The notes beneath the pieces are model-generated. The model made no database searches and was not told the DNA's origin. It saw nothing but the letters and a program-made list of their open reading frames with translations. Positions 1 through 16,924 of a stretch of 32,510 nucleotides of DNA are shown here, piece after piece. A program made the position numbers and the translations under genes. The stretch lies in NCBI GenBank assembly GCA_031409655.1, contig JANNXQ010000270.1, positions 1 through 32,510 of the forward strand, given 5' to 3'. Origin of the DNA: Chthoniobacteraceae bacterium. GTDB lineage: Bacteria > Verrucomicrobiota > Verrucomicrobiia > Chthoniobacterales > Chthoniobacteraceae. How positions within the stretch are numbered: the first letter of the stretch is position 1; every line of letters starts with the position of its first letter.

Positions 1-879
1 GAAGGCATCGGTGGTGAAATTGTGAAATTCGTCGATGAAGAGAAAGAAGTCGCGGCGCTCGGACTCGGGCTGGTTCACGCGGGCCATCGCGCCGAGCTGG
101 AACTGCGTGGTGAGCAGGCTGCCGAGCAGGTTGGCCTTGTCCGCGCCGAGCCGGCCTTTGGAGAGATTGGCGATGAAGATGCGGCCCGTGTTCATCATGA
201 AAGGCAGGCTCACTTTCGCGCGCACCTGGCCGAGGATGTTACGCACGACGGGATTGAGCAGGAACTGGCCGAGCTTATTTTGGATCGGCGCGATGGCTTC
301 GCGCTGGAAACGCGCATCGTAGTTCTCGAACTCGTCCGTCCAGAAGGCGCGCACGAAGGGGTCGCGTACTTTCGCGACGATGCGGCGGCGATAGTCGGCG
401 TCGGTGAGCATGCGGTTCACGCCGAGCAGGGAAGTATTCGGGCGATCGAGCAGCGCGGCGACGGCGTTGTAGAGGATGTATTCGAGACGCGGCCCCCACG
501 AGTCGCGCCAGATGCTTTTGAACGCGCCGACGATGCCGCTGGCGACGAGGTGCCGGTCATCGGGCGCGACGTTGGCGATAAGATTGAGGCCGATGGGGAA
601 GTCGAGGTCGCCAGGATGAAAATAGACGAGGTCATCCGCGCGATGCGGCGGGATGCAGTCGAGCAGCTCGTCCGCAAGATCCCCGTGCGGATCGATCAAC
701 CCGACGCCGTGCCCGGCGGCGAGATGTTGCACGATCAGATTGCGCAGCAGCGTCGTCTTTCCGGTGCCCGTCTTGCCGATGAGATAGAGATGCTGGCGCC
801 GATCGGAAAGCGAAAGGCCAACGGCCTTCTCGCCGCCCCAGATTTCCTTGATGCCGATGTATGAAAATTGTTCGTCCAT
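1..879 (-). CDS. Type IV coupling protein-like / VirD4-TraD-HerA family P-loop ATPase (3' end runs off the window)
   Basis: Not in the ORF track because it has no stop in the window. Manual translation from ATG 879: MDEQFSYIG...DRRQHLYLIGKTGTGKTTLL (Walker A), LIDPHGDL, WGPRLEYIL, IAPIQNKLGQFL, ANLSKGRLG, RRDFFLFIDEFHNF (Walker B). No N-terminal TM segment. Confidence 0.9.
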   Translation of the reverse strand, partial: MDEQFSYIGIKEIWGGEKAVGLSLSDRRQHLYLIGKTGTGKTTLLRNLIVQHLAAGHGVGLIDPHGDLADELLDCIPPHRADDLVYFHPGDLDFPIGLNLIANVAPDDRHLVASGIVGAFKSIWRDSWGPRLEYILYNAVAALLDRPNTSLLGVNRMLTDADYRRRIVAKVRDPFVRAFWTDEFENYDARFQREAIAPIQNKLGQFLLNPVVRNILGQVRAKVSLPFMMNTGRIFIANLSKGRLGADKANLLGSLLTTQFQLGAMARVNQPESERRDFFLFIDEFHNFTTDAF

Positions 880-1095: not shown

Positions 1096-1239
1096 CAAGT
1101 GACGGCTCGTTGCGCACCACCGTGTTATGCCGGCGGCATGGCGCGACCATCCAAGCGTAAATTGTGGGCAGCGAGCGCCGTAGGAAATGCGAGTAAAGAT
1201 GCTTGCCTTCTCGTCATTGCAAAGCAGCCTCTCGCACGC

Positions 1240-2499
1240 ATGAAATGCGTGCGGTTCCCCCTCCTCACCCCTCTCCTCCTTGCGGGGATCGGGTCGGCGG
1301 GGGCGGTTCCACCCACGGTGTCGAATGTCCGCGGGTTGCAGCAGGTGTCCGGGCAGGTCGTGGATATATACTACAATCTGACGGACCCGGATTCGGCGGC
1401 GGTGAGCGTGTCGCTGCTGATTTCGAGCGATGGTGGGGCGACTTGGACGGTGCCGGCAACTTCACTCAGTGGGGCGGGGATCGGTGGGGCGGTGGTTCCG
1501 GGGGCGGATCGACATATTGCGTGGAATGCTGGGGCGGACTGGCCGGGGCAGAAGTCCAATTCGATGCGCTTTCGGGTGACCGCAACCGATGATCCGCCCC
1601 CGCCCGCTGGCATGGTGTTGATTCCGGCCGGAAGTTTCCAGATGGGGAACTCGACGAACAGTACCGAGGGCCGAAGCGACGAGCTGCCGGTGCATCCGGT
1701 ATCGGTAAGTGCGTTTTTCATGGATCGATACGAGGTGACGAAACAGTTGTGGGATGAGGTGCGGGCGTGGGGGGCAAGTAATGGACGTGGGTACACGGAT
1801 TTACCGTTGGGGTCGTATGGCGGGACGACAAACTTTAGCAAGGGGGCGAATCACCCGGTGCACTACGTCGGTTGGTTTGCGGTGGCGAAGTGGTGCAACG
1901 CTCGATCCGAAATGAATGGGCTGCTGCCGGTGTACTACACTAACGATGCGCAGACGACGATCTACAAGACCGGGAGCGTGAATTTGACCAATACTCAAGT
2001 AAAATGGGGGGCGAATGGGTATCGGTTGCCGACAGAAGCGGAGTGGGAGAAGGCGGCGCGAGGCGGATCGTCCGGGCAGCGTTTTCCTTCAGGAGCGACG
2101 ATTTCCCACACGCAGGCTAACTATTTGGTGTATTCCGCAGATGGGACGACGAACTACTATACTTATGACGTAAGTCCCACGCGGGACCATCATCCGACGT
2201 TTGCTGTAAATGGAAATCCTTACACGAGTCCTGTCGGTTACTTTGCACCAAACGGATATGGCTTATATGATATGGCTGGAAATATTTGGGAGTGGTGCTG
2301 GGACGGGTATGGAGCGAGTTACTACGACACTTCTACGAGCAGTGATCCACTGGGTCCCCCAGCGGGCCTTAACCGGGTAATGCGCGGAGGTGGCTGGGAC
2401 GATTACGCATTAACGGCTCGCGCGGCCTCTCGTTCCTACGGTTCGTCGTTCGGTTCGCCCTACCTAATGTTATTCGGCTTCCGCTGTGCCCGCCGGTAG
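1240..2499 (+). CDS. Secreted formylglycine-generating enzyme (SUMF1/FGE-sulfatase, C-type lectin fold) domain protein
   Basis: Signal-like N-terminus from ATG 1240 (MKCVRFPLLTPLLLAGIGSAGA); motifs MVLIPAGSFQMG, YEVT, GYRLPTEAEWEKAARGG, NGYGLYDMAGNIWEWCWD, RGGGW, GFRC. Confidence 0.92.
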   Translation: MKCVRFPLLTPLLLAGIGSAGAVPPTVSNVRGLQQVSGQVVDIYYNLTDPDSAAVSVSLLISSDGGATWTVPATSLSGAGIGGAVVPGADRHIAWNAGADWPGQKSNSMRFRVTATDDPPPPAGMVLIPAGSFQMGNSTNSTEGRSDELPVHPVSVSAFFMDRYEVTKQLWDEVRAWGASNGRGYTDLPLGSYGGTTNFSKGANHPVHYVGWFAVAKWCNARSEMNGLLPVYYTNDAQTTIYKTGSVNLTNTQVKWGANGYRLPTEAEWEKAARGGSSGQRFPSGATISHTQANYLVYSADGTTNYYTYDVSPTRDHHPTFAVNGNPYTSPVGYFAPNGYGLYDMAGNIWEWCWDGYGASYYDTSTSSDPLGPPAGLNRVMRGGGWDDYALTARAASRSYGSSFGSPYLMLFGFRCARR

Positions 2500-2578
2500 G
2501 AGCCATGAATGCTCGCCCCTCTGCCACGTTCGACGCACCTTGCGGAGTGCCGGGCGCTTTTTCCGCGTCGCGGACACT

Positions 2579-5500
2579 ATGAAATTTCTCACGGGACTCA
2601 TTTTCTTTGCGGCCTTCCTCGCCGTGCGTCTCGATGCGGAGGCGGGAACGAGCACCTCGGGAAACATCTCGGTGGATACGACAGGCCCTGCGGGCAACGT
2701 GACGGTGACGATGTTTCGCGCGAAGGAGAGCGCAGTGCTCGAAAATGCCGTCGAGGGCGTTTCGGCCGACGAACCTTTGCGGGTGAAGGCGATCACTCCG
2801 GCGACGATGGCAAGCCTGGCGGTCGTGCCGGCTTGGAACTCTTCCACCAATACCGGCGGTGGCTTGGTGGCCGATGGCGTGACACCTCTCATCTTCCGAA
2901 TCGCAGCCAATGGCACGCCTTCCGCGAGTGGCGACCGTTACGTGGTTGCGGTCGGGAAAAAGTGGGATGGTGTCTTGAGCTTCCCATTTCCGAGATTGTC
3001 CCTGGCCGGGAGTGCGGTGTCTTCGCCGGAAGCATGGATCACCCTGACTCCGGCAAATCCGGTAGCGTTTGTCGTGTTGAACGCAATTCAGGCGGAGGAT
3101 CTCATGGAGACTGGCTTTCCAGGAGTAGTGGTGGCGACGCTGACAGTGCGGGATGCAACTAACGGAAAGCGCCGTGGCGAAATCGACTTCGGTGTCAGCT
3201 TTCCTCCGGTGGTCCTGGTGCATGGATACAACGTCAGCGATCCGCAAGATTGGGGAACTGACTTTAGGTATAATCTCCGTGTAGGGCGTCCGGACGATTT
3301 TGTAATCGTCGCGAGCTATGGAGTCGAAAATGACTTCAATACAACTGGCAGCTTGGGGGAACTGACAAAGACACTTTATGGAGTGTTACTGGTGGGAATG
3401 GAAAAGGAGGGCAGCCGCTCCGCTGTTTTGAATCAGTGGGCTTGGACTCGGTATGATGCCGTGGGGCACAGCCAGGGCGGCGTTCTGCTCCGGCTGCTTT
3501 GCTCGCAACGAGAGAAAATCGGCGGCGGCACGGTTTACGAAAACGGCTTCGACCCTTGGAGAAATCATCGGAATCATTATCGCGGGCGTTTTCATCGAGT
3601 TGTGACGATCGGCTCACCGCACGCGGGCTCGACGCTGGCGGAGCTAGGTATTCAACTCCAGAATGAGGGTGTACCTATCCGGTATGAGACTGCCGCTGAG
3701 CTCGCGGCTCTGGCGGCTGGCGGACCCCTCGTCGGTCCGTTCTGGGCACAGGAGATCAAGGATGAAGTGAAGAGGCTTTTCCAATCGAAGTTTCGAGTCG
3801 GCTCGCCGAGCCAACTGGCCACAATCAACGATGCGTTCCAGTGCGATCCGTATGCGCGCCTGCACCTTTTGCGGACCACGATTTACGGTGGGCTCGCGCC
3901 AGGGGAAAGCGGGAATGGCTGGTGGCCTTTTTACTACAGTGCGCTGTATCTGAATGAGGCGACGCCGACGGTGAATGGCCTGAGCCCCGGCGAGGTGGTG
4001 GCACCGAACGGTGCGGATGGGGTGGTGGACACGGACAGCCAGGGGGCCGGCGCAGGCAGCAATCACACCAGCGCGATCACCGGCGAGAATATCATCCACG
4101 CTGACGTTCCTTACCTAGACGATGAAGTGGGGGATACGCACTCGCAGACGGTCGCGGATAAAGTGGCTGAACTGCTCAAGGGGTCGGCGGCGGCATTCGG
4201 CCCGGTGACGATTCCCGCGGCTTTGAAGGCCACGATGGCAGTTCGGCGGGAGAATATCCTGACGCTCGCACAGGCAATTCGTGGTGGGCAGAGGCGCGAA
4301 CCGGGTTCGTTGTACTCAGGTGGGGGTGGAGGCGGAGGGGGCGGCGGAGGATTTCTAATTCCTGCGCCGGGCGAAACAGGCAAAACTGCATCCTTCACGG
4401 ATCAGACGCTCCACTTCACGCTGCAGCCGCCGGCAGGTGAATCGCCGAACGGACCGGTCGAATGGACGACCGTGGTTTATGGGCCGGAAGGGATGGCTGC
4501 CACGGGCCTGACTATGACGACCGCCGGCACGTCTGGCGACGAGTTGACGATGTTCGTCGCAGCCTCGGTGCAAGGGCAGGTGGTGTTGAGCGTGAGCTTT
4601 CGCTCGACGAGCGGGAAGATGGTGTTCGGCTCGCCGCAAGTGGTGCTGAACCGCCCGACGGGTAGTGTGCTTACGAGCCTCGCTCTATCTCCCGCGGTCA
4701 TCGAATTGCAAGTGGGCGCCGAGGTGTCATTGGCGTTGTCGGGCATCTACGACGGCACGGTGTCGAGCCGGTTGTTCACCAATGCGGCGAACACGTCGTT
4801 TGTGTCATCCGATCCCAGCGTAGCGACAGTGGACGCGGACGGTCGCGTAAAGCTCATCGCATTGGGGATGGCGAGGATCACCGCGACCTACAATGGGACG
4901 CTCATGGCAGCGGTCGTGGTGACGGTGTTGGATGTGGCGCCGGTGGTGGTGAGTCCCCCGACGATCCCCGCGACGGTGGGGCAGTATCTCTCGCTCCAGC
5001 TTTCAGCTTCGCAGGTCGTGCAATCTTTCACGATGGATGCGCTGCCGACGGGGCTCTCGCTTGATGCGCAGTCGGGGCTGATCGAAGGGGTGCCGACGAC
5101 GGAGGGGCGCTTCCCCGCGGTGGTGACGGTGCAGAATGCCAATGGGACGGGGAGCAAGCAGATGGAATTTGTGATCGCGGGCGTGCCGGGTGCGCCGACG
5201 GATGTGAGCTTGGATGCGGCGGGGGTGAATGGCGGGAAGCCGGTGGGAACGGTGGTCGGGCGTCTGGTGACGGTCGATCCGAACCCGCTCGACACTTTCA
5301 CCTACCAACTCGTGAGCGGCGCGGGCGGCGCGGACAACGGGCTCTTCACGATCGCGGGCAACTCGCTGGTGACGGCGGCGGTGCTCAATCGAGCGGCGAC
5401 GAGCACGGTGACCATTCGGGTGCGGACGACGGATTCGTGGGGCGCGAGCTTTGAGAAGGCGCTGGTGCTGCCGGTGGGCACGCCGCCGGCGATCGTGCGG

Positions 5501-6124
5501 CAGCCGGATGCGCGGGAGGTCTTCGTCGGCGAGAGCGCGATCTTCTTCGTGGAAACGACGGGGCTCGAACCGCTGCAATACCAGTGGAAGAAGGGGGGCG
5601 TGGACGTGGCCGGCGCGACAAGCCGCATCTTCGAGGTCTCCGCGGCGTCGCTGGCGGATGCGGGGAATTACACGGTCGCGGTGAGCAACGGCGACGGCAG
5701 CGTGACGAGTGCGGCAGCGAGCCTGGCGGTGAATCCGATCACGTATGGCAAGTGGGCAGCGGCGCTGCCGTCCGGGATGGCGTCGGCGCTCTTCGAGCCG
5801 GGGGCGGACTACAATGCAGATGGGATCGTGAACTTCCTGGACTTCGCCTTCGGCGTGCAGCCGGGGCTTGAGTCAGGCGTCGGCGCGCAGCCCTCCGTGT
5901 CGCGCGATGCGCTCGGCTATGTGCTGACTTATCGCGAGGCGGATAGCGTCTCGCCCCTCACGTATCGCATCCTGAAATCGGTGAACCTCGGCGCGTGGAC
6001 GGAGCATGTGCCCGTCGTCGGCGACGTGACACGGACGAATCTCGGCACCCACACAGTCGTGGCTGTGCGGGTGCCCTCGCCTGCTCCCGGGTTGTTCTTC
6101 AAACTGGAGGTGAGTTCTCAGTAG
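2579..6124 (+). CDS. Large secreted alpha/beta-hydrolase (lipase-like) with Ig-like, putative-Ig, cadherin and immunoglobulin domains
   Basis: Signal peptide from ATG 2579 (MKFLTGLIFFAAFLAVRLDA); PVVLVHG, GHSQGG nucleophile elbow, VTIGSPHAGS, DGVV; poly-Gly linker; SSDPSVATVD, LPTGLSLD, FTYQLVSGAGGADNGLFTI, PLQYQWKK...DAGNYTV. Confidence 0.88.
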   Translation: MKFLTGLIFFAAFLAVRLDAEAGTSTSGNISVDTTGPAGNVTVTMFRAKESAVLENAVEGVSADEPLRVKAITPATMASLAVVPAWNSSTNTGGGLVADGVTPLIFRIAANGTPSASGDRYVVAVGKKWDGVLSFPFPRLSLAGSAVSSPEAWITLTPANPVAFVVLNAIQAEDLMETGFPGVVVATLTVRDATNGKRRGEIDFGVSFPPVVLVHGYNVSDPQDWGTDFRYNLRVGRPDDFVIVASYGVENDFNTTGSLGELTKTLYGVLLVGMEKEGSRSAVLNQWAWTRYDAVGHSQGGVLLRLLCSQREKIGGGTVYENGFDPWRNHRNHYRGRFHRVVTIGSPHAGSTLAELGIQLQNEGVPIRYETAAELAALAAGGPLVGPFWAQEIKDEVKRLFQSKFRVGSPSQLATINDAFQCDPYARLHLLRTTIYGGLAPGESGNGWWPFYYSALYLNEATPTVNGLSPGEVVAPNGADGVVDTDSQGAGAGSNHTSAITGENIIHADVPYLDDEVGDTHSQTVADKVAELLKGSAAAFGPVTIPAALKATMAVRRENILTLAQAIRGGQRREPGSLYSGGGGGGGGGGGFLIPAPGETGKTASFTDQTLHFTLQPPAGESPNGPVEWTTVVYGPEGMAATGLTMTTAGTSGDELTMFVAASVQGQVVLSVSFRSTSGKMVFGSPQVVLNRPTGSVLTSLALSPAVIELQVGAEVSLALSGIYDGTVSSRLFTNAANTSFVSSDPSVATVDADGRVKLIALGMARITATYNGTLMAAVVVTVLDVAPVVVSPPTIPATVGQYLSLQLSASQVVQSFTMDALPTGLSLDAQSGLIEGVPTTEGRFPAVVTVQNANGTGSKQMEFVIAGVPGAPTDVSLDAAGVNGGKPVGTVVGRLVTVDPNPLDTFTYQLVSGAGGADNGLFTIAGNSLVTAAVLNRAATSTVTIRVRTTDSWGASFEKALVLPVGTPPAIVRQPDAREVFVGESAIFFVETTGLEPLQYQWKKGGVDVAGATSRIFEVSAASLADAGNYTVAVSNGDGSVTSAAASLAVNPITYGKWAAALPSGMASALFEPGADYNADGIVNFLDFAFGVQPGLESGVGAQPSVSRDALGYVLTYREADSVSPLTYRILKSVNLGAWTEHVPVVGDVTRTNLGTHTVVAVRVPSPAPGLFFKLEVSSQ

Positions 6125-6417
6125 CGGGATGCCGGAAGAGTCGGGGCCGTAGGCGCGAGCGCATTTTTCATCCGGGGGGAACAGAGCGAGGTAGTTCATC
6201 GCGTTCGCGCGAAGTCGTCGTCCGGCTCGCTAGACCGGATGTGTCGTGCGTGCGTGAGCACGAGGTTGTCCTTTACGAAAACCAGTTCCCCCAAGGTTGT
6301 CGGCAGGCGCTAGCCGGAACGTCGTAAGCGTCATGCATAGCTCCGTGCGGTTTTCGTTGACGGCGCAGGTTGACCGATGCCGGGAGGTATAAATTGCGTA
6401 GCGGACAGCTACGGAAC

Positions 6418-8025
6418 TTACGCAGCGGCTTGCGTGGTGTGGCCTTGCCTGCGGGCTTTGCTCCAGGCTTCCGGGGTGACCTCGGGGATTTGGCTGGTGG
6501 TCATCTTCGGCAGGCGCGTGAGCACGTCGCGCAGGTAGGCCTGCGGGTCGATCCCACGGCGGCGGCAGCTTTCGACGAGGGTGTAGAGGATCGCTCCGCG
6601 ATGGCCGGCCTCGGCCTCGCCGATGAACAGCCAGTTCTTTTTGCCGATGGCCGTTGGGCGGATGGCGTTCTCGACCCGGTTATTGTCGATGGCGATGCGG
6701 CCGTCGCGCAGGAACGCTTCGAGCGCGGGCCATTGGCCGAGCGTGTAAGTGATGGCTTTGCCCAGCGCGCTTTGGGGCAGGTGCCGCGGGCGGATGCGCA
6801 GCAGCGCGGCGCGGATGCGGCGCAGGATCATCGCGCTTTGCGCAGCGCGCACGGCCTGGCACAGCGCTGGTCCGACGCGATGCTCTCGCAGGTGCTCTTC
6901 GATCTGGTAGAGCTGGGCGATCTGCCGCAGCAGCCAACCGATGGTGCGCGGGGCACTCTCGCGAGCCTGATGGATGGCGCGACGGGCATGCGCCCAGCAG
7001 CCAGCCAGCGTGATCGCCTCCACTCCGGCACGGCTATTGTGTGCGCGCACGAAGGCGGGGTAGGCGCTGTAGCCGTCGGTCTGCAGCGTGCCGCGAAAGC
7101 CGGCGGGGATGATGGTTTCCAGACAGGCGGCGGCGCGACTCACGGCCCAATGAAAAACGGTGTCGCCGCCGGGGCGCGCGCAGGTCCAGAGGTAGCCGAG
7201 TTTGGTTTCGCCATGGCCGGGAACCAGATACTCGACCGGCGTTTCATCCACCTGCACATAACCGCCGCCGAGCACCCCGGTGCGGATGTGTTCGTAGATC
7301 GGGCGCAGCCAATCGGCGGCCAGGCCCATCCACTGCGCCATCGTCTGGCGCGGGATCGCGACGTCGTGGCGCGTGGCGAAGATCTGCTCCTGCCGATAAA
7401 GCGGAAGGTGATCGACGTATTTTCCGACGACGATCGCGGCGATCAGGCCGGGTGCGGCCAGGCAGCGGTCTTGCAAAGTGCAAAGCGGCGCGAGGATCGG
7501 CGCGGCGAAGGGATGGTCGCGCCGTGCGTATTTGCGCCGCACGATCCGGCGTTTGAAGAAGCGCGCCGGCTCGTAGTCGAGTTGCTCGGTCACTTCCTCG
7601 CCAATGCAACGCCATGCTTGTGGACAGGCTTTGACCGGCTCGGGATCGATCACCTCCTGGACGACCGGCAGGTGCGCCGGGATGCGCGGCCCGCGCTCAC
7701 GCGGAGGCGATGGGACCGTCGAGCGCCGTGGTGCCTCCGCTTCCACGGGCTCCGGGGCTTTTCCCGGCGCATCGAGTCCTTGCAGCATCAGGAGCAGTTG
7801 CCCGGGATCGAGCTTCTGCCAGCGCCCTCCGGCGCTGCCCTGCGGGCTGCCTGCGGCAGGCTATCTCGCTCCGCTCGGTTCGCTCTGCGCGCCGTAGAGC
7901 CTTTTGATCAGCGCATCGATCTTTTCCCGCAGCAGCTTGTTCTCGCCCTGCAACTCGACAAGCTGTGCCGCCGAGCGTGCGAGTTGTTCGGATAACTCGG
8001 TTTCGCGCGAGGTTGGATCAGGCAC
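6418..8025 (-). pseudogene. tnpC: IS66 DDE transposase interrupted by an in-frame TAG inside a 63-bp insertion
   Basis: The N-terminal leucine-zipper part (GTG 8025, ...LLREKIDALIKRLYGAQSE) and the main part (KYVDHLPLYRQE, VDET, LQTDGY, CWAHARR, DNNRVENAIRP, GKKNWLF) are in the same frame, separated by TAG at 7863-7861. Confidence 0.88.
7816..7879. repeat. 63-bp palindromic mini-hairpin insertion in tnpC
   Basis: Removing 63 nt restores ...GAQSE-KLDPGQLLL. The insert (minus strand) contains GC-GGA-GC, CTGCC-GCA-GGCAG, CCC-GCA-GGG and CAGCGCC-GGAG-GGCGCTG. Boundaries are ambiguous by 1-2 nt. Confidence 0.75.
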
Positions 8026-8089
8026 GCTGCTTCTACCCACTGACACTCAGTGTTGTTAGTCAGCCTTTTGTTACTAACTCGATTTTGTT

Positions 8090-8443
8090 TTACTCGCGCT
8101 CAAACCAAGGCCGCATCTTCGCCCCGCGCAGGTCGATCCCGTCGGTGAGCATCGCCAGCGCCTCGGGCCGCAGCGCCAGCTTCGGCGCGCCGATCTCCTC
8201 CACTTTCGGCCACGCAAAGGTTCCTTTCTCCAGCCGCTTGGTCAAAAGCCATAAGCCGCTGCCGTCGAAGTAAAGCACCTTCAGCCGCGTGTGCCGCTTG
8301 TTGGTAAAGACGAACAATGCGCCCGAACGCACCTCCTCGCGCAGTCGCTCCCCGACCAGCGCGTGCAACCCCTCGAAGCCCTTGCGCATGTCGGCCGGTT
8401 CCACCGCCAGGAACACCCGCACGCTGCCGGCAAAACTCAGCAC
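8090..8443 (-). CDS. tnpB: IS66 accessory protein TnpB
   Basis: DMRKGFEGL, LFVFTNKRHTRLKVLYFDGSGLWLLTKRLEKGTFAWP; GTG 8443 overlaps the tnpA stop. Confidence 0.93.
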   Translation of the reverse strand: MLSFAGSVRVFLAVEPADMRKGFEGLHALVGERLREEVRSGALFVFTNKRHTRLKVLYFDGSGLWLLTKRLEKGTFAWPKVEEIGAPKLALRPEALAMLTDGIDLRGAKMRPWFERE

Positions 8444-8826
8444 GCCGATCCTCCCCCGCCAAACACCCGCAACAACTGCGCCGCCAGCACCACCTGCGCC
8501 GCATCGCCCACCTCCAGGCGCGCACCGCCCGGCAGATGGACCGTCAACGTCCGCGCCGCGCCAGCCTTCGCCTCCTCCACCGTCGCCTCCACCCACTGCA
8601 ACGCCACAGGCTCTTGGCACCCTGGCGCCGCGCCATAACCCCGTCGCTTCCGGCGCTTCTGCACCCACGAAGTGAAGGTCGAATATTTGACCCCGAGGTG
8701 GGCCGCAAACTTCGCCGCCGGCAGCCCGCTGCGTTCAAACTCATCCAGCACCGCTTCGCGCTGCTCCCGGGGCGTCCACACCCGCCCCGCCGCGTCCACT
8801 TTCAAAATTCGTTCGGTCTGGGTCAT
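8437..8826 (-). CDS. tnpA: IS66 accessory protein TnpA (HTH)
   Basis: EFERSGLPAAKFAAHLGVKYSTFTSW, VHLPGGARLEV; first gene inside the IS end. Confidence 0.88.
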   Translation of the reverse strand: MTQTERILKVDAAGRVWTPREQREAVLDEFERSGLPAAKFAAHLGVKYSTFTSWVQKRRKRRGYGAAPGCQEPVALQWVEATVEEAKAGAARTLTVHLPGGARLEVGDAAQVVLAAQLLRVFGGGGSAC

Positions 8827-9131
8827 AGATTGCGTAGCGTAACGCCTCCGCAATCTATGACCACCGCTCCTCAACGGCGCGCCGCGTGACGCTTACGGAA
8901 CGTCCGACTTCGCGCGTTTTGGTCAGGTCGGAATGGTTAATGGAGACTGACCTGATAACCGGATGGAAAATGCGCGAAGTCGGGCGTTGCCCGACAACCT
9001 TGGGGGAGCCAGTAACCGCGCCGTTGAGCCGCGAAATCGTCGCGCCCTCGGCGCGCGCCCCTACATACCATGTTTGTAGGGGCAGCCAGTAGGGAAGCGA
9101 AGCGACAATCGTCAATTCTACGAAAGCTTCG

Positions 9132-9398
9132 TCACGTCTCGGCTCGCTTCGTAGCCTTTTCGATAATCTTCCAGAGCTGTACGTCGAGAGCCGCTGCTAT
9201 TCTGAGGAGAGTGTCTAGCGTGGGCCTGCGCAATTCGCGCTCCACGAGAGAAATCATGCTCACGTGGAGTCCGGCGCGCTCGGCTACCACGTTCATCGAG
9301 ATGCCTTTGCGGAGGCGTTCGGATCGGAGGGCTTGAACGACGTTCGAGGAAATCGTTTCCCGTAAGGAGTGCTTTGGCACTCCATAGGAAATAGTCAT
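9132..9398 (-). CDS. XRE/Cro-C1 HTH transcriptional regulator (C-protein-like)
   Basis: LRSERLRKGISMNVVAERAGLHVSMISLVERELRRPTLDTLLRIAAALDV; start uncertain (ATG 9398 or a downstream GTG). Confidence 0.9.
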   Translation of the reverse strand: MTISYGVPKHSLRETISSNVVQALRSERLRKGISMNVVAERAGLHVSMISLVERELRRPTLDTLLRIAAALDVQLWKIIEKATKRAET

Positions 9399-9407
9399 TT
9401 TCCGCGT

Positions 9408-9431
9408 TTGACACGGATTTGACTATAGTCG
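9408..9431. promoter_or_regulatory. Divergent promoter region with palindromic operator GACTATAGTC
   Basis: Perfect 10-bp palindrome at 9421-9430 just downstream of TTGACA (9408-9413), between divergent genes; a second ATAGTC half-site at 9391-9396. Confidence 0.55.
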
Positions 9432-9442
9432 CATTTCGCGCC

Positions 9443-9688
9443 ATGAACTTCACCAAACGCATCGGTCCTGATCCTCACGCAAACGGCGCGAAGACTTCCG
9501 CGCTTCGAGGCTGCCCGGACATCCTTGAAATCGAGGGTGGCGATTTCGCCATCATCGGCACGGACATCACCGCCGACGCGGAACCGCGTCTGGCGTTTGG
9601 TGCGAGTTGCGGGCCGGACGAGCGGATCATCCGGGTCCCGCGCCGGACGCTCGTGCTGGCGAAGGCGGACATTCCCGACACCCTGTAG
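9443..9688 (+). CDS. Small hypothetical protein (CPDILE...GDFAIIG motif)
   Basis: 81-aa ORF with natural-looking composition, divergent from the XRE gene and co-oriented with the next gene. Confidence 0.8.
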   Translation: MNFTKRIGPDPHANGAKTSALRGCPDILEIEGGDFAIIGTDITADAEPRLAFGASCGPDERIIRVPRRTLVLAKADIPDTL

Positions 9689-9722
9689 CGCAAGAGCCGC
9701 CCGGCGGGGTATAATGCCCGGC

Positions 9723-10187
9723 ATGGGAATAGGGGAATGGCTGGCGCAAAATTGGTTCGACCTCTTGCAGACTGTGGCGATCACCACGGGTCTCTTTGCG
9801 ACGGTTCACAACATCCGTGCGGATCGGCGGGAGAGGATGGTCACCACTCAGTTCAGAATCGCGGCGGCACATCGCGAGATTTGGTCGCGGCTGGCCGACA
9901 ACCCGAGTCTCGATCGCGTGCTGAGCGAGGACGTGGATCTGGCCGGGAACCCGATGACGATCGAGGAGGAATTGCTCGTGCAGTTTCTGATCCTGCACCT
10001 GCGAGCGACTTTCAAGGCGCGGCGCGCAAAGATGGATTTTGCGGACGATCAGATCGGACTGGATACGCGTGCGTTCTTCACGCTGCCGATTCCGCGCGAG
10101 GTTTGGCGGCGTTCACGTCCGTTTCAGGACGCGGAGTTCGTGGAGTTCGTCGAGTCCACACTTGTGGACAGAGCGGCGGGGAAGTGA
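9723..10187 (+). CDS. Membrane-anchored hypothetical protein, DUF6082-like
   Basis: N-terminal hydrophobic helix (WFDLLQTVAITTGLFATV) followed by a helical domain; TATAAT 7 nt upstream of ATG 9723. Family assignment is from recall and unverified. Confidence 0.72.
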   Translation: MGIGEWLAQNWFDLLQTVAITTGLFATVHNIRADRRERMVTTQFRIAAAHREIWSRLADNPSLDRVLSEDVDLAGNPMTIEEELLVQFLILHLRATFKARRAKMDFADDQIGLDTRAFFTLPIPREVWRRSRPFQDAEFVEFVESTLVDRAAGK

Positions 10188-10237
10188 GCGCGCACGAATC
10201 GCGTCGCACGGGATCTGATTCCGGTAGGCAGCGGAAT

Positions 10238-10284: not shown

Positions 10285-10701
10285 CTACGACTTGGTGATG
10301 ATTCCCTGAACGATGAGGTCGGCGACGAGCAGAGGGACGCTGACGACTTTGACGCCTTGGACGGTCTTGCCGTAAAGGTGGCCGAAGTCCTTCTTGTCGC
10401 CGGTGAGCAGGTAGTCCGCGTGACCGGCAATCGCTCCGCAGAGGATGGGGCGGTCTTTCTCCGCGATCTTCACGCCGGGATCGAAGAGTTGCAGTGGCAC
10501 CAACTCCAGGCCATCGGCAAAGGCCCGCAGCGCAGCGAGGCGTTTCGGGGCTTTGGCGGCGATGTTTCGCTCGGCTTCAGTCCGGGCGTAGGCGTTGGTG
10601 AGGAGATCGGCGTGGCGCTGCAACTCTTCCAGGAAGTCGGCGAGCAAGCTCTTCGCAAAGCCGGCGGAGAAGAGGATGTTGGCGTCGAGGAAGACTCTCA
10701 T
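10285..10701 (-). CDS. PIN-domain (VapC-like) toxin
   Basis: MRVFLDANILFS, EAERN, KDRPIL, ADYLLTGDKKDF; directly downstream of an AbrB-type gene. Confidence 0.9.
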   Translation of the reverse strand: MRVFLDANILFSAGFAKSLLADFLEELQRHADLLTNAYARTEAERNIAAKAPKRLAALRAFADGLELVPLQLFDPGVKIAEKDRPILCGAIAGHADYLLTGDKKDFGHLYGKTVQGVKVVSVPLLVADLIVQGIITKS

Positions 10702-10706
10702 CGCGC

Positions 10707-10943
10707 TTAGCGCCAGCGCAGCTTCTTTCCGGCGAGAGGCTTCTCATTCATCTGCTCGAATTCCGCGACGCGTGCGGCGCTATAAATTTCGATGGGCATG
10801 ACGACGCCGGCGCGGAGGACGACTTCGCCATTTTCGTCCACGCTGACGACGATCTGGCCTCCGCGCGTGACGCCGAGTTTGTCGCGGGCCTCCTTGGGCA
10901 GCGTCAGTGCACCACGTTGATTGACGGAAATGACTGTGGTCAT
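10707..10943 (-). CDS. AbrB/MazE/SpoVT-type antitoxin
   Basis: MTTVISVNQRGALTLPKEARDKLGV...GEVVLR; ATG 10943. Confidence 0.9.
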   Translation of the reverse strand: MTTVISVNQRGALTLPKEARDKLGVTRGGQIVVSVDENGEVVLRAGVVMPIEIYSAARVAEFEQMNEKPLAGKKLRWR

Positions 10944-10949
10944 GAAAAC

Positions 10950-11847: not shown

Positions 11848-12795
11848 TCACGAGGCAACGGGTTCTGCGGCTTGTGGGTCGGGGAGATCCACGGCGGGTG
11901 CGTCGGACGCGACCGCTGTGTTCCTCCCGAGGATAAAGTCCGCAGCGCGACCGGCCTGATTGGCGGCCAAGACGATCCAGCGCCGATGTTCCGCGACGCC
12001 GAGCACATCAAGCCAGCCTTTCAAATAGGCGGCGGATTGCTCATGGGTGTCGCGGACGATCCCGGCCTCCATGCCGAGAAAGGCTGCCCCCATTTCGGCG
12101 ACCAGTTCCTCTTGCGAGTAAGTCTTCCCGCCGAAGCCGTCGTGCTCGATGACGCCTTTGCGCGCGAGCCGCGATTCCGCGCCACTGGCGTGGATGGCCT
12201 CATGGTAGAGGGTAAGGTGGAACTCTTCCGGGGTGGCGAAGCGCGCGAACGCCGGCATGTCGATGGTGTCGGTGCTGCGGCGATAACACGCTTGCGTGGT
12301 GTGGCCTTCCCGAATGATCGGGCGCTGTGGCATCTTCTCCACGATCTCCTGAGCGCGGGCGATGCGTTGCGAAGCATCGAGCTGCGGCCCGTTCTCCACG
12401 GGTGGAAACTCGATGCCCTCGATCTGCGAGGCGTTGAAGACGCGGTAGCTCTTGAGAAAGAACCGGGCCTTCTTTTCCTCGGTGGCGTTGCCATTCGGCG
12501 CGGCCTTTTCCTGCCGGCCCCATTTCATGACCGTGGCGCCGTGTTCGCCTTTGCGAATGCTGCCGCCCCGTTCGTTGGCCTGGCGGAAGGTCATCCACCA
12601 GGGTGATGGGAATTTCAGCAGGCCGAGCAGCAGGGTGTTAATGCCCTGATACTCGCGCCCGGAATGGAAGTTCCGCGGGCGGCCAGTGGAACGATTCCAC
12701 GGGCAGCGCCACGGAACGACGCCGCGCTCGAGATGCGTGAGGATGATGTCAGTGACGAGTTGATAAGGATCAATGCGAACCGGTTCTGGGTTCAT
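11848..12795 (-). CDS. ardC: ArdC-family antirestriction ssDNA-binding protein with zincin-like domain
   Basis: VPWRCPW, Y.GIN, WMTFRQA, IRKGEHG, VFNASQIEG, HEAIH, YSQEELVAEMGAAFL, SAAYLKGWL. Confidence 0.93.
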   Translation of the reverse strand: MNPEPVRIDPYQLVTDIILTHLERGVVPWRCPWNRSTGRPRNFHSGREYQGINTLLLGLLKFPSPWWMTFRQANERGGSIRKGEHGATVMKWGRQEKAAPNGNATEEKKARFFLKSYRVFNASQIEGIEFPPVENGPQLDASQRIARAQEIVEKMPQRPIIREGHTTQACYRRSTDTIDMPAFARFATPEEFHLTLYHEAIHASGAESRLARKGVIEHDGFGGKTYSQEELVAEMGAAFLGMEAGIVRDTHEQSAAYLKGWLDVLGVAEHRRWIVLAANQAGRAADFILGRNTAVASDAPAVDLPDPQAAEPVAS

Positions 12796-13071: not shown

Positions 13072-13914
13072 CTACGCCGCTTCCTCGAATTCTTCGCTCA
13101 ACAGCTTTTCGAGCAATGATTCGACCACCGCTTTCATGCGATTGGTCGCGTTTCGTCCAGCGGGACCGACCACGCTCGCGGTGTATCCGTCGAGGATCAC
13201 CGACGCGCGTTCAGTCTTCTTGCGGCGGGTGCTTTTGTTGTCGTTCAATTCACCGATGTGCCGGCGGAGTTCGGTGTTGCTCAGGCCGCTGAGAGCCAGC
13301 TCGGCGAGCCGCTTCTGCTCATGCTCGTCAGTAATCCGGGCGATGCGAATGATGGTATCGTATGGCACCGCAATCTCGGAATGCCTCAGCGTGGTTTGCA
13401 GCGCGGTGGGTAACGAAAGCACGCGCAGCATGTCACTCACCCATGCCTCCCGTTTGCCCAGCACCCGCGCGAGTTCACGCTGACTGGTGATCTGGTTGTC
13501 CTCATCGAGCATCGCCTGCAAGGCTTCCGCCAAATCCACCGCACCGAGGTCCTCGCGCTGCACATTGGAGATGAGGCTCTTTCGGCGGCGCAACAGTTCA
13601 TCTTCTGCTTCGCGAATGAGCACCTCCACTTCCCGCAATCCGGCGAGCTTTGCTGCTCGGGCACGACGGTGGCCGGTCAGGATGCGATACCTTTCGCCCT
13701 CCGTCGTGACGGTGATCGGTTCGACCAGCCCCACGGCTTTGATCGAAGCCACCAACCCGTCCATGTTGCGGAAGGTCTTTCGTTCGTTGTGCGGATCTTC
13801 GAGGAGCCGGTCCAGACTCACAATGAGCCGTCCGCGCTTACCCAATCCGCTCGCCAGTCCCTCCTTCACCAACTCCAGCCGGCTCTTGCCAGTCTCTTTC
13901 GTGAATATTCCCAT
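13072..13914 (-). CDS. parB: ParB/RepB/Spo0J family partition protein
   Basis: SIKAVGLVEPITV, YRILTGHRRARAA (GxRR), NVQREDL, HTH SQRELARVLGKREAWVS. Confidence 0.92.
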   Translation of the reverse strand: MGIFTKETGKSRLELVKEGLASGLGKRGRLIVSLDRLLEDPHNERKTFRNMDGLVASIKAVGLVEPITVTTEGERYRILTGHRRARAAKLAGLREVEVLIREAEDELLRRRKSLISNVQREDLGAVDLAEALQAMLDEDNQITSQRELARVLGKREAWVSDMLRVLSLPTALQTTLRHSEIAVPYDTIIRIARITDEHEQKRLAELALSGLSNTELRRHIGELNDNKSTRRKKTERASVILDGYTASVVGPAGRNATNRMKAVVESLLEKLLSEEFEEAA

Positions 13915-14677
13915 CGTTGTTTTCGTTAGCTGATAATGTCGCCATCGCCTCCGCCACCAACGCGCTCAGGTCTGCGGCACCGCGCGAGAGCGGTCGCCAA
14001 TGGAAAATGCTGCCTCCGTATTCATCGACCTGCGCGAGCCAGCCACAGGAACGGATCTCCGTTTGCGCAGGCGTCAATCCGTCCGCCTCCAGCAGCTCGA
14101 TGACCCGACGGCGCAATCCCGGCAGCCGGGTCAGATTGCTGAGCACATGGAGCACTTGGTAGTCGCCCGCGACGCGATGCTGGAGGAGGAGCTTGTAAAC
14201 GCTGGCGAAACTTTTGACGGCCTTGGTGCTCTCAAACGGGACGATGAAAAGATCGGCCGGATAGATCGCGTTCTCCATGATCGGTGAGATCTGGTTCGGG
14301 CTGTCGATGACCGCGAAGTCGTAGTCGTCGCGCACGGTGGCGAGTTGCTGGGCGAGCAGAAAGGCATAGCTCTCGCGGTCTGTGATCTGCCGACCCAATT
14401 CCTCCAGACTGTCGGCGCTGGCCGCGAAGTGGAGATTGTCGATGTGGGATCGCTGTACGATTTCGGAGAGCGTTTGATCACCGTTGAATACCGCAGCCAA
14501 GGTACCGGAGACGTTGAACCCGTCGCCAGCATGAAGCCACTGGGTCACCTGCGCCTGCGGATCGAGATCGAGCAGGAGCACCCGTGCCCCACGCAGGCTC
14601 AAGCCCGCGGCGAGGTTCATGGCGATGGTGCTCTTCCCACACCCGCCCTTGGCATTGATGACGGTGATTACGCGCAT
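13838..14677 (-). CDS. parA: ParA family ATPase
   Basis: NAKGGCGKST deviant Walker A, LLDLDPQAQ, YDFAVIDSP; overlaps the parB start by 77 nt. Confidence 0.93.
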   Translation of the reverse strand: MRVITVINAKGGCGKSTIAMNLAAGLSLRGARVLLLDLDPQAQVTQWLHAGDGFNVSGTLAAVFNGDQTLSEIVQRSHIDNLHFAASADSLEELGRQITDRESYAFLLAQQLATVRDDYDFAVIDSPNQISPIMENAIYPADLFIVPFESTKAVKSFASVYKLLLQHRVAGDYQVLHVLSNLTRLPGLRRRVIELLEADGLTPAQTEIRSCGWLAQVDEYGGSIFHWRPLSRGAADLSALVAEAMATLSANENNDGNIHERDWQEPAGVGEGGTGERIG

Positions 14678-16377
14678 GGTTGAAATGGTTGAGGGTTAAA
14701 CTCCGGGTCCCAGTGCCAGAAATCCGGGAGCTGGAAATGGCGCTGGAACGCGAGTAGCCGCTGGCGCTCCGGGTCTTCCACCGTGGGTTGCCAGCGGGTG
14801 CTTTGGTGTAGCGTCAGGAAGCGGGCGTATTCGTCCGGGCGCTTCAGGCGGCAGGTCGTCTCGGTCTCGACCAAAAAGCGATACCACGCCGGCTCGTGCA
14901 TTGTGCGGTGAACGGCGCGACTGGCTTTCTCCGCCTCGGTGCGCAACTGCTGCTGGGCGCGACCAAAGCGCAGCAGCCACGCATCCCCGTGCGTGCGCAA
15001 AGCCAATACGAGTGAGTTCAGATCCCGCGCGCTCTTGCGGTCGTTCACATAGGCCGCAAAGTTGCGTCCCCAAGCGACCACGTCGGTCTTCACCGGCTTC
15101 GTCGCTTGCAGTCGCTCGACGAATCGTCCGGCCAGTTCAGTGTCCCGTGCGGATGGTTCGGCGACCGGCAAGCCGGCGTTGCCCGCCAGCCCCGCGTAGA
15201 AATGCTGCGCGAATTCCCGACCTGCGGAAACTTCGGCATGCCGAAGTTCTTCCGGAGCCGGCCAGCCTTCCTCAATCGCCCTTCGCAACATTCCCAGCCG
15301 ATTGCGGCTCGGTGCCCTGCGCGGCAGCCACGCGATCTGCGCCCCGATTTGCTCCTCCGAAAATTCTCCCGCCAGAGTCTTCGCCGCCTTCTTCGTGAAC
15401 CCTTCCCCTTTCAAAAGAGCGAAAGCGTTCGGTGTGACCGCATCCGACTGCTGCTGTTTACTCATTTCATTTTCTTGTTTCGTTTGTATGTCGGTGGGGT
15501 TTTCGGACTGGTTCACCGGTGGGTTTTTCGAACCGGTCCCGGTAGGGTTTTCATACCGGTGAAGCTCGATTTGAGCCGGTGGGTTTTTCAAACCGGTCAG
15601 GTAGGGAGAGACATCCGCCCAGCGCAAAGTGAAGCGGCCAGGTCGGCTCTCCCGTCCGGCGTTGGGATCGAAGTATCCCTGCTCAATGCGGTAGATGTAG
15701 CGGCATTCCTCCGCGCGCCGCAAAGCGTCGGCAAGCGAGTGCCGGTCGCGCAGATGGGTGTAGCGCTGGATGTCGGAGTAGGAGAGACGCACCTCTTGAC
15801 GGCGACCTCCGTGACGGGCCTGGAACCCAATCGAGAAGCGAATGACCGAAGCGACGACCTTGATAACCGAGAGAGGTTCGGCCGGAACGACACGATCGAA
15901 GAATTGATTGGGGATGTCCGTGCGATTGCCTTCGCCCTCGAAAAATCCACGGAACTGTTTCGGATCTTTGATGTATTCGGAACGGGAGTCCCAGCGAAGC
16001 TGGTAATGGGCACTCTCGGCGGGGAAGTAGGCGCGGGAAGGCTGTCCCGTGTGAACGCATTCGATGAACCCGCCCTTCAACGCAGCGTCCAGCGTCTTGC
16101 GGATCTCGCTCCGGGCGATCCCGGCCCGACTGACCAGTTCACCGTAGGAGACGCGAATGTGTTCATGCTGAGGATTACCCTCGGCATCGCACCATCCCAG
16201 TGCCTGACGAATGAGAAAGGCAACCAACCGGACAACGCCACGGGAATAGTTCGGCACACACACGTCGAAGAACTGATTCGGTGTGTAGGTCGTGTTGCTC
16301 GTCGGCGCCGCAAAGCCCGGGAACACCTCCACGGCAGCGTGAGTGCGGGTCTGTTTTTTGGGGGAGACGCGCAGCAT
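14668..16377 (-). CDS. Putative replication initiator with two tandem homologous (wHTH-like) domains
   Basis: Duplicated unit NxTxxPNQFFD...V+...IR...G...+R+SY; internal DNA direct repeats; located between an RHH gene and parAB. Confidence 0.75.
   Translation of the reverse strand: MLRVSPKKQTRTHAAVEVFPGFAAPTSNTTYTPNQFFDVCVPNYSRGVVRLVAFLIRQALGWCDAEGNPQHEHIRVSYGELVSRAGIARSEIRKTLDAALKGGFIECVHTGQPSRAYFPAESAHYQLRWDSRSEYIKDPKQFRGFFEGEGNRTDIPNQFFDRVVPAEPLSVIKVVASVIRFSIGFQARHGGRRQEVRLSYSDIQRYTHLRDRHSLADALRRAEECRYIYRIEQGYFDPNAGRESRPGRFTLRWADVSPYLTGLKNPPAQIELHRYENPTGTGSKNPPVNQSENPTDIQTKQENEMSKQQQSDAVTPNAFALLKGEGFTKKAAKTLAGEFSEEQIGAQIAWLPRRAPSRNRLGMLRRAIEEGWPAPEELRHAEVSAGREFAQHFYAGLAGNAGLPVAEPSARDTELAGRFVERLQATKPVKTDVVAWGRNFAAYVNDRKSARDLNSLVLALRTHGDAWLLRFGRAQQQLRTEAEKASRAVHRTMHEPAWYRFLVETETTCRLKRPDEYARFLTLHQSTRWQPTVEDPERQRLLAFQRHFQLPDFWHWDPEFNPQPFQPCA
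15229..15248. repeat. 20-bp palindrome AACTTCGGCATGCCGAAGTT, parS candidate, copy 1
   Basis: Perfect palindrome, identical to the core of the copy at 16647-16672. Confidence 0.65.
15491..15597. repeat. Four ~22-bp iteron-like direct repeats; putative replication origin
   Basis: CCGGTRGGKTTTTCnnACCGGT-like units at 15491, 15516, 15539 and 15576, next to an AT-rich tract at ~15455-15490. Confidence 0.75.
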
Positions 16378-16646: not shown

Positions 16647-16672
16647 AAAAACTTCGGCATGCCGAAGTTTTT
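16647..16672. repeat. 26-bp palindrome, parS candidate, copy 2
   Basis: AAAAACTTCGGCATGCCGAAGTTTTT, perfect. Confidence 0.65.
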
Positions 16673-16924
16673 CCGTTCGCACGGAACGGTCTGAAGCGGG
16701 TTCGAGTCTCTCTGTCCGGCCAACACGCGTCAGTAGGAGGAGGCGAAGCGTCCGCGATCAGTTTATTCTAACGGCATCCTACTCGCAAATGGCACTAGGT
16801 TCCGGCAGCCTCCTCTATACGGCACTCGTCGAGTTTGTAGTCCATTACTTTGGACGCGCGACGAATTAAACCCAGTGGAGTGAGTATACTTCCCGGACAC
16901 GGGGTATCAATCGGGGAGCGAAGG

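Follow-up and report, generated by a model that had tools for sequence, protein, structure and literature searches.

Genetic context of the element

The window analyzed here is a stretch of 32,510 nucleotides, the start of which overlaps the end of contig C102 by 141 bp (100% identity). The following genes and insertions were localized in the window and on this neighboring contig:

C102:55089-56108, DnaG-like primase of the element
C102:64513-65430, minus strand, cognate relaxase (Replic_Relax; PF13814, E 3.4e-27, above cut-off)
1-879, minus strand, 5' part of a VirD4-like coupling-protein gene (TrwB_AAD_bind match), the open frame of which runs on into C102
1099-6124, plus strand, cargo (FGE-sulfatase and Ig-domain genes, Pfam) between the coupling-protein gene and the putative origin of transfer (oriT)
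6324-8896, minus strand, IS66 (tnpC Pfam matches), inserted in the left arm of the structure described below, between its side hairpin and its inner stem
6316-6323 and 8897-8904, left and right copy of the 8-bp target-site duplication of IS66
9132-9398, minus strand, XRE-type HTH gene
11848-12795, minus strand, ArdC anti-restriction gene in the leading region, facing the putative oriT, with the plus strand as its template
13072-16377, minus strand, ParB, ParA and a 569-aa ORF without Pfam match, which might, as a guess, be a replication initiator

A coupling-protein gene beside the origin and the relaxase gene is the expected layout of MOBC systems (10.1101/2024.01.30.577996), and in homologous elements the mob genes directly adjoin the structure. 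Among 16 long loci, the coupling protein was found to the left of the element in 13 and a full relaxase in 11. ArdC faces the element in 12 of them, the HTH gene comes next after the oriT in 14 and a DnaG-like primase is encoded in five. When 30 independent metagenomic homologues were inspected, 21 carried a coupling-protein or relaxase gene within 1.5 kb, compared with 1 of 50 other pattern matches. A Chthoniobacter sp. locus (L135) combines the element with both genes. Of the 14 other relaxase loci scanned (L214-L227), 12 had no matching rod in their vicinity, and in L276 the coupling protein is present and the inner stem is absent.

In the relaxase, PD and E-x-D motifs are invariant and so is a tyrosine (Y228). 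The third acidic residue is D in this family, but E in the named MOBC relaxases. A structural model (pLDDT 86) had BstEII, FokI and winged-helix proteins as best Foldseek matches, all of them weak (best E 5.7e-4, TM 0.23). No significant similarity emerged when profiles were compared directly with pAM373 Orf8 and pMET1 MobC. Pfam gave no match for pMET1 MobC, and a search by sequence returned no solved structure. The element is associated with a tRNA-Ser site, a 35-bp duplicate and a serine recombinase. A search for the VirB4-type T4SS family PF03135, the one family searched, gave no match in the genome (95% complete), and an integrated mobilizable element fits better than a self-transmissible ICE. 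A phylum-wide DNA search matched 0 of 400 other genomes, so that within this sample the DNA family has a narrow distribution. PLSDB contained no real DNA homologue and one distant relaxase.

Two alternative folds interrupted by IS66

The preliminary description of this DNA had claimed a single-stranded structure with two mutually exclusive folds, split by IS66. We recovered every helix it named:

Fold A
6286-6303/8991-9008, plus strand, outer stem, 18 bp with 1 G-T (-112..-95/+12..+29 relative to the predicted nick); its left arm (6286-6303) is left unpaired by B1, B2 and B3
8899-8920/8967-8988, plus strand, inner stem, 22 bp with 2 G-T (-80..-59/-12..+9); its left arm (8899-8920), the proposed splint, pairs with sequence on either side of the predicted nick
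8922-8956, plus strand, inner hairpin in the terminal loop of the rod (helix 8923-8931/8947-8955, 9 bp with 1 G-T)
6306-6315, plus strand, side mini-hairpin with a GCTA loop
Fold B
6159-6175/8959-8975, plus strand, helix B1, 17 bp with 1 G-T (right arm at -20..-4), leaving a 3-nt unpaired 3' flap
6206-6217/8905-8916, plus strand, helix B2, 12 bp perfect; 6206-6217 is a direct repeat of the nick-proximal word
6219-6230/6309-6320, plus strand, helix B3, with three true mismatches
Common parts
8959-8988, plus strand, right arm used by fold A as well as by fold B, with the predicted nic at 8978/8979 (AA/GTCGGGCG)
8979-8995, plus strand, hairpin of 7 bp at the 5' end that the predicted nick would set free on the transferred strand
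9061-9079, conserved palindrome at +82, candidate binding site of the relaxase winged helix

To the right of IS66, the inner stem in its full length still lies together with the predicted nick site and the +82 palindrome; the sole parts moved off, by 2.6 kb, are the left arm of the outer stem and the arms of fold B. Searching for natural IS-free homologues, we obtained matches in 20 of 151 family genomes (this count includes our own genome, G000, and one weak match of 43 nt). One IS-free allele, which comes from a relative, was present in three of four sequencing runs, all from one study. An exact IS-free version of the window allele was found in none of these four runs, and the left IS66 junction recurs without differences in a contig of run X2. 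The rebuilt IS-free allele folds as DNA far below 40 shuffles on both strands (z -9.2 on plus, -7.9 on minus). The energy of fold A on the full allele was -84.2 kcal/mol (fold B, -74.9), and both folds are stable as RNA, too.

Covariation was tested for both folds, and compensatory changes were found in fold A and in the main helix of fold B. For fold A, 93% of the cells were paired and 8 pairs had changed on both sides, a result reached in 0 of 500 shuffles. At -9..-3, 20 different words occur in 50 sequences, all of them compensated; at least 7 of 9 positions were matched in 50/50, and the fold is perfect at -3..-11 in 14/50. The outer stem comprised at least 10 bp in 30/30 metagenomic homologues, and the inner hairpin varies in sequence among homologues. 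Since the homologues are mutually related, the p-values of these comparisons overstate the significance. The preliminary description had named a MITE, a REP or a recent neutral inverted duplication as what might undo its claim. That three of the 16 long loci (L046, L048, L051) have no mob genes beside the element in the stretch fetched would suit such an origin. However, the structure is single-copy in its own genome, it keeps a fixed position among mob and leading genes, and its compensation is extensive. Because both folds covary, we give these explanations practically no weight.

Which strand folds, and whether as DNA or RNA

In the 50 sequences, GNTA mini-hairpin loops occurred 102 times on the plus strand and 0 times on the minus strand (4.7 in shuffles). 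GNRA loops numbered 14 (10.2 in shuffles), and GNA triloops showed no enrichment (18 vs. 18). The restriction of GNTA loops to the plus strand indicates that the folded molecule is plus strand DNA. The initial statement that all non-Watson–Crick pairs are G-T holds for the five main helices, but not for the third helix of fold B, which has three true mismatches. Among the mismatch types of the 50-sequence set, G was kept 10 times and C 0 times. With strand-neutral scoring, 20 sequences gave 10 distinct G-T versus 3 A-C mismatches (p=0.09), so that the G-T count as sole strand evidence is weak; the larger set of 50 provides the better indication of the strand. Thus, the idea of a selected, two-state structure of the single plus strand was borne out by the covariation of both folds and the strand bias of the GNTA loops.

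A switchable ncRNA transcribed from the plus strand, one of the options of the preliminary description, would agree with the stability of both folds as RNA, and covariation alone does not distinguish RNA from DNA. The sequencing runs listed include no RNA data set with the element, which bears on expression in neither direction. The loops, however, are of the DNA type (GNTA) and not of the RNA type (GNRA). Rfam gave 0 matches at gathering score in the window and three sub-threshold miRNA-type matches only on 12 IS-free loci, and no sigma-70-like site (-35/-10 boxes) was detected in the homologue scanned (L046, 9700-10700). Moreover, position and geometry are those of a DNA origin, specifically of a MOBC oriT, and we consider the ncRNA very improbable. 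The same scan speaks against an ssDNA promoter, another of the options, as do the leading genes, which face the element and do not point away from it. Like Frpo/ssi promoters and phage G4-type origins, the element has long plus strand stem-loops on the transferred strand and GNNA mini-hairpins. Unlike Frpo/ssi, it shows no sigma-70 boxes in the scan, lies downstream of the leading genes and is centered on a nic-like motif.

Predicted nick site and comparison with known origins

An oriT region, also among the options, agreed with both the location and the shape of the element, which are those of a MOBC oriT. The element very probably is the oriT of an integrated MOBC-relaxase mobilizable element, which acts as folded plus strand ssDNA. 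A nic-like motif lies inside a large inverted repeat, and it is linked to a Replic_Relax, PD-(D/E)XK-like relaxase with an adjoining coupling-protein gene. The CloDF13 nick motif ends in /GTCGGG (PMC5935869). From the CloDF13 nic and the geometry, we infer a nick at 8978/8979, inside the stem; GTCGGGCG is invariant in 20/20 aligned homologues. The element had been placed at the end of the leading region, but most of it lies on the trailing (3') side of this predicted nick. Two other candidate sites, one in the terminal loop of the rod and one at the TG/GTCAG motif (8919-8926), were rejected since they are poorly conserved in the 50 sequences. A deletion in L051 ends at the predicted nick, but it sits on a 5-bp microhomology and is therefore ambiguous.

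The raw count of sequences with a hairpin of 4 bp or more in the interval +0..+23 was 50/50. The palindrome was found at +82..+84 in 21/21 sequences, and G027 and G062 have a similar palindrome at a similar distance. The binding site of TraX lies 70-120 bp 3' of nic (PMC12857230); at this distance the present element has one palindrome and not five direct repeats. By analogy with CloDF13, it is probable that the relaxase binds 9061-9079 and nicks at 8978/8979.

Among the known origins, CloDF13 (MobC relaxase, MobB coupling protein) likewise forms a rod of two parts whose right arm carries the nick motif. Its inner stem (-74..-59/-11..+4) and outer stem (-108..-94/+13..+27) occupy almost the same positions as those in the window (-80..-59/-12..+9 and -112..-95/+12..+29), with 47 versus 46 nt between the inner arms. 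The side hairpin at the same place, a G-T near -6, a hairpin just 3' of the nick and mob genes located 5' of the origin and directed away from it are also shared. In contrast, CloDF13 is a small plasmid and not an integrated element, the bases 5' of its nick differ, it has downstream direct repeats in place of the +82 palindrome and it lacks fold B. A search with an IS-free homologue matched no MOBC plasmid, and there is no overall DNA similarity to CloDF13.

The pAD1 oriT2/pAM373 pair (TraX, Orf8), of which we examined pAM373, shares with our element a Replic_Relax relaxase with winged-helix and nuclease domains and a large inverted repeat that is extended on one strand by G-T pairs. The pAM373 repeats start about 70 nt 3' of the placed nick, as reported for the TraX binding site. 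These self-transmissible plasmids differ by longer and more perfect stems, AT-richness, five direct repeats and the lack of fold B. For ICEKp1, ICEEc1 and pMET1, the oriT described comprises a direct repeat and two inverted repeats, one of which contains nic motifs (PMC4891358, PMC2262945). pMET1, the one examined of this group, resembles the element in an ArdC-like gene facing the origin and in a mini-hairpin located at +7, but its inner stem is perfect, its mob genes lie 3' of the placed nick, it has its own T4SS and it lacks fold B. The right arm begins between -10 and -13 in each of the six origins compared, with the nicks of pYR8, pMET1 and pAM373 being our own motif-based placements.

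Fold B and the proposed mechanism

B1 was above shuffles in 18/19 sequences of the genome set and in 24/30 metagenomic homologues, being not significant in the other 6/30. B2 is present in the genome set and reaches at least 9 contiguous bp in only 5/30 metagenomic homologues. The bases facing -1..-3 are unable to pair in 17/17 sequences checked. Because these last three bases never pair, we rejected fold-back self-priming from fold B as the default, although trimming could permit priming. For a strand ending at the nick, fold B is predicted to dominate in 15/20 and 21/30 sequences, whereas fold A is predicted to dominate in 20/20 full sequences. For the window allele, the two states of the switch comparison are predicted to lie 0.2 kcal/mol apart. 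The fold-B value of G062, the left arm of which is at -195..-171, was left out as invalid. The two ends are predicted to co-fold as a nicked duplex in 25/26 and 30/30 sequences; the latter result is partly circular, since possession of the inner stem was the criterion by which the 30 loci were chosen. CloDF13, pYR8, pMET1, pAM373 and G027 lack fold B, which thus is not needed for MOBC transfer in general. We consider fold B probably functional. No description of such a second fold was found in the literature searched, but older primary papers may already discuss the role of the hairpin.

On the basis of gene context, geometry, covariation, strand bias and predicted energies, we infer the following steps. 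The relaxase would bind 9061-9079 and then nick at 8978/8979. The strand would leave 5' first, toward HTH, ArdC and ParAB, with the hairpin capping its free 5' end, and 6159-8978 would be the last region to arrive. This trailing end may fold as B, which would engage the inner left arm as well as the 3' end (with its 3-nt flap) and leave the outer left arm open. Being free of B1, B2 and B3, the outer left arm is a possible toehold. Once post-nick sequence is present, fold A would form and unite the two nick ends in a single duplex, some 12 bp of which lie on the side of the 3'-OH, with the inner left arm presumably acting as splint. We have good confidence in this explanation taken as a whole. 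More tentatively, at somewhat less than even odds, fold A might offer a double-stranded site for cutting within the displaced strand and, as a self-splint, let host DNA ligase close the circle again, with fold B weakening A sufficiently to set the cut tail free. Fold B may release or park this tail.

According to a 2025 review, no covalent intermediate has been seen for MOBC relaxases, and DNA recruitment, transfer and religation are open questions (PMC12857230; also PMC6736028). It is conceivable, though we hold it to be the more doubtful step, that MOBC elements recircularize their transferred strand without covalently bound relaxase. The oriT would then be its own ligation splint with a 5' mini-hairpin cap, and in the present lineage fold B would add a nick-triggered switch of the tail between a released and a ligation-ready state. 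For TraX, a tyrosine is essential and a covalent link has been suggested (PMC6736028); together with the invariant Y228 this counts against our preferred explanation. If true, the model suggests a testable way for such elements to protect and re-join DNA ends without bound protein, and the open religation question leads to simple disruption-and-rescue tests. The family supplies natural covariation, which is hard to get from near-identical enterobacterial plasmids, and its nick-side sequence varies freely, subject to the need for a single strand to keep its pairing across the nick. It also provides an oriT signature for a group for which none was found described in the literature searched; the oriT identity alone, if only that holds, is a modest addition.

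The tail fold of the same oriT could instead serve mainly as a single-strand initiation site, with fold B (or A) presenting mini-hairpins to a primase that would begin the complementary strand near the 3' end of the transferred one. GNNA mini-hairpins occur at the phage G4, ST-1 and alpha3 origins and at ssiA (PMC13037366). In addition, the element encodes a DnaG-like primase, and the interval -200..-80, which enters last, holds most of the GNTA loops. Such a site leaves unexplained why a stem always spans the predicted nick and why B1 ends at -3 to -5 in most homologues. We regard it as unlikely to be the main role, and it is compatible with our preferred explanation rather than exclusive of it.

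It is less probable still that only the inverted repeat around nic matters, as donor cruciform or hairpin substrate, with the B arms being template-switch repeats or dsDNA protein sites and the second fold having no role. The few G-T pairs in B1 are in line with this idea. However, B1 tracks freely varying sequence at spacings of about -170 to -300 while the flanks diverge, which argues against a sequence-specific protein site. Furthermore, B1 outperforms fold A at -4..-12 in the genome set, where 9/9 positions were paired by B1 in 13/19 sequences and by fold A in 1/19.

Organization of the locus

The element is very probably an origin of transfer (oriT) of the known MOBC kind that carries a lineage-specific second fold. 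It consists of the following parts:

6286-6303/8991-9008: outer stem of the rod (fold A)
8899-8920/8967-8988: inner stem of fold A, spanning the predicted nick
8923-8931/8947-8955: inner hairpin of fold A, in the terminal loop of the rod
6159-6175/8959-8975: helix B1 of the alternative fold B
6206-6217/8905-8916: helix B2 of fold B
6219-6230/6309-6320: third helix of fold B
6324-8896: IS66 insertion
8978/8979: predicted nick

When the sequence was checked directly, the helices of the preliminary description were found at these positions, as were IS66 and its 8-bp target duplication. Its statement that all non-Watson-Crick pairs are G-T was correct except for the third helix of fold B, which has true mismatches. 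DNA folding of the IS-free allele, a computational join of the sequence after removal of IS66, yielded z-values of -9.2 (+ strand) and -7.9 (- strand), and the predicted energies were -84.2 kcal/mol for fold A and -74.9 kcal/mol for fold B. The genome (G000) has a single copy of the element. Two further contigs (C217, C187) carry a second intact relaxase with a primase, plus a broken third; no further copy of the origin sequence was found in the assembly.

Predicted position of the nick

The CloDF13 nick is given as 5'-GGGTG/GTCGGG-3' (PMC5935869), and in the plasmid record it falls in a rod, on the right-arm side; this rod has an inner stem (-74..-59/-11..+4), an outer stem (-108..-94/+13..+27) and a side hairpin between the two. 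By analogy, we infer a nick at 8978/8979, which places the window stems at -80..-59/-12..+9 and -112..-95/+12..+29. Here, GTCGGGCG was unchanged in 20/20 homologues, and a palindrome followed at +82..+84 in 21/21 sequences. AA/GTCGGG was also found inside a compensated stem at two loci reached via relaxases about 35% identical (G027, G062); the remaining 12 scanned relaxase loci, several of them truncated or separated from the coupling protein, had no such rod. In pYR8, pMET1 and pAM373, whose nicks were placed by motif, the right arm starts at -10 to -13. The pAM373 repeats begin about +70 from its motif-placed nick, in agreement with the 70-120 bp reported for TraX (PMC12857230). Inverted repeats enclosing nic are already described for MOBC origins (PMC4891358, PMC2262945).

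In a divergent origin (L221:9800-10230) the inner arms are about 110 bases farther apart, yet nick motif and palindrome spacing are unchanged. At L051:13683-14113 a natural deletion has taken out the inner left arm and loop; its end coincides with the predicted nick and lies on a microhomology of 5 bp.

The predicted nick, inner stem and palindrome stay together on one side of the IS66 insertion. The IS-end segment 8865-8881 is complementary to 9017-9033 at 15/17 positions and is predicted to form a substitute outer stem, but this pairing of the inner IS end with downstream oriT sequence may be due to chance. The IS66 variants on contigs C44 and C45 differ from the window copy in this segment. 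The transposase region of IS66 contains a REP-like segment (7811-7880, about 68 bp) that resembles segments at 15 further positions of the genome and is missing from other IS66 variants in the sequencing runs.

Covariation of the two folds

In a 20-row alignment of non-independent relatives, 93% of the cells were paired for fold A (8 two-sided pairs) and 92% for fold B (3 two-sided pairs). Metagenomes were searched with a pattern of nick motif and palindrome only, and 80 of at least 120 matches were analysed. A stem across the nick was present in 30 of them, all with the palindrome at +81..+85, and in 0/40 matches with other palindrome spacings. Ten matches had the +81..+85 spacing and no stem (five missing upstream DNA, four chance-like, and L276, a counter-example). 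A mob gene lay within 1.5 kb in 21 of the 30 stem-bearing loci. Across 50 sequences, 30 of which had been chosen for having this stem, 20 different words occurred at -9..-3 and the left arm matched each at 7/9 or better. Helix B1, which was not a selection criterion, exceeded shuffles in 18/19 genome sequences (L002 and L051 excluded) and in 24/30 metagenomic ones; B2 was clear in only 5/30 metagenomic sequences. The covariation check proposed in the preliminary description found compensation in fold A and, for fold B, mainly in helix B1. The structure is real and under selection.

Strand and type of molecule

In the genome set, G-T mismatches outnumbered A-C mismatches 10 to 3 (p 0.09). Where the inner stem varies, the mismatch types retained G in ten cases and C in none (naive p 0.002), a bias to which cytosine deamination on an exposed + strand could contribute. 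GNTA tetraloops, present in 46/50 sequences, numbered 102 on the + strand and 0 on the - strand (4.7 in shuffles), whereas GNRA loops were not enriched in the same 50 sequences. These data bear out the earlier reading of a single-stranded + strand. The alternative of an ncRNA loses ground with the missing GNRA enrichment and with Rfam: the window gave no match, and 12 IS-free loci gave none that exceeded the gathering score.

Mini-hairpins of the types GCGNNAGC and GCGNAGC are described as very stable, exonuclease-resistant DNA structures that occur at ssDNA origins (PMC13037366). Such a mini-hairpin is located at +7 or +8 in CloDF13, pMET1, G027 and G062 and within the first 20 nt in 21/50 sequences; pAM373 has none, and in the window the loop of the 5' hairpin is GTT. 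The template of ArdC is the + strand, which fits the expectation for a transferred strand (PMC11541004, a study stated to have omitted MOBC for want of leading-region enrichment).

Relaxase

Both the relaxase of the element and pAM373 Orf8 score above the cut-off of PF13814; pMET1 MobC had no Pfam match. In the relaxase alignment (n=21 sequences), PD and E-x-D do not vary, nor does a Tyr located after them. The best fold matches of the structure model (pLDDT 86), which are weak, were restriction endonucleases and winged-helix proteins, and direct comparison with Orf8 and MobC was not significant. Therefore, the enzyme likely belongs to MOBC, by family and fold.

Predicted switching between the folds

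The following predictions describe equilibrium, without SSB or supercoiling. Among fragments ending at the predicted nick, fold B was dominant in 15/20 (3 mixed, 2 absent) and in 21/30 metagenomic ones; with the post-nick sequence added, fold A dominated in 20/20. In two-piece co-folding the ends formed a nicked duplex in 25/26 and 30/30 cases, the exception being the window allele, whose released and joined states are 0.2 kcal/mol apart. B1 commonly ends at -4, and the final three bases were never paired. CloDF13, pYR8, pMET1, pAM373 and G027 have no fold B.

MobC of CloDF13 is reported to leave the 5' end free, and religation of MOBC strands is described as an open question (PMC6736028, PMC12857230). 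We tentatively propose, with somewhat more doubt than confidence, that fold A would provide a duplex site for a restriction-like enzyme inside the displaced strand and would then line up 3'-OH and 5'-P for host ligase, while the 5' hairpin would shield the unbound end. Fold B would free the cut tail and leave the outer left arm open to capture the 5' end later. One of the two main rivals assigns the tail fold a priming role. According to the other, fold B is functionless. Our literature search, with primary papers outside its scope, turned up neither a second fold nor a self-splint. The splint proposal offers a directly testable answer to the religation question.

Distribution and gene context

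DNA searches matched the element in 8/61 relatives and 20/151 family genomes (each including G000 and one weak match) and in none of 400 further genomes from the phylum. One named record, a Chthoniobacter sp. MAG (L135), carries it. To the left of the element, the long loci have genes pointing away from it for a VirD4-like coupling protein (13/16) and a full Replic_Relax relaxase (11/16); on the right an HTH gene is next in 14/16, and ArdC is oriented toward the element in 12/16.

The window has 5 kb of cargo between the element and the coupling-protein gene. This gene leaves the contig and continues into contig C102 via a 141-bp identical overlap. The relaxase gene comes next on C102, and farther along there are type I restriction genes, a primase, a second coupling protein, a serine recombinase and a tRNA-Ser. 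The 3' end of this tRNA-Ser is duplicated on contig C193, the candidate far end. The genome search gave no match to the VirB4 family, so an integrated mobilizable element is the best reading. Three origin homologues (L046, L048, L051) have neither relaxase nor coupling protein in the stretch examined and are candidates for mobilisation in trans.

Cargo of several kb between coupling-protein gene and oriT, seen in the window (1099-6124) and in L049, suggests that the trailing edge of the origin is an insertion hot spot. After the HTH gene, two small conserved + strand genes (about 84 and 150-160 aa; window about 9430-10190), present in 12/16 and 13/16 loci, respectively, gave no Pfam match. The leading region also holds a pair of PIN-like toxin and MazE/AbrB-like antitoxin (10285-10944), found in either orientation among homologues. 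Finally, a 26-bp perfect palindrome (16647-16675) upstream of a 569-aa ORF has a copy inside this ORF (15228-15254, 26/27 identical), and both are candidate sites of initiator binding or autoregulation.
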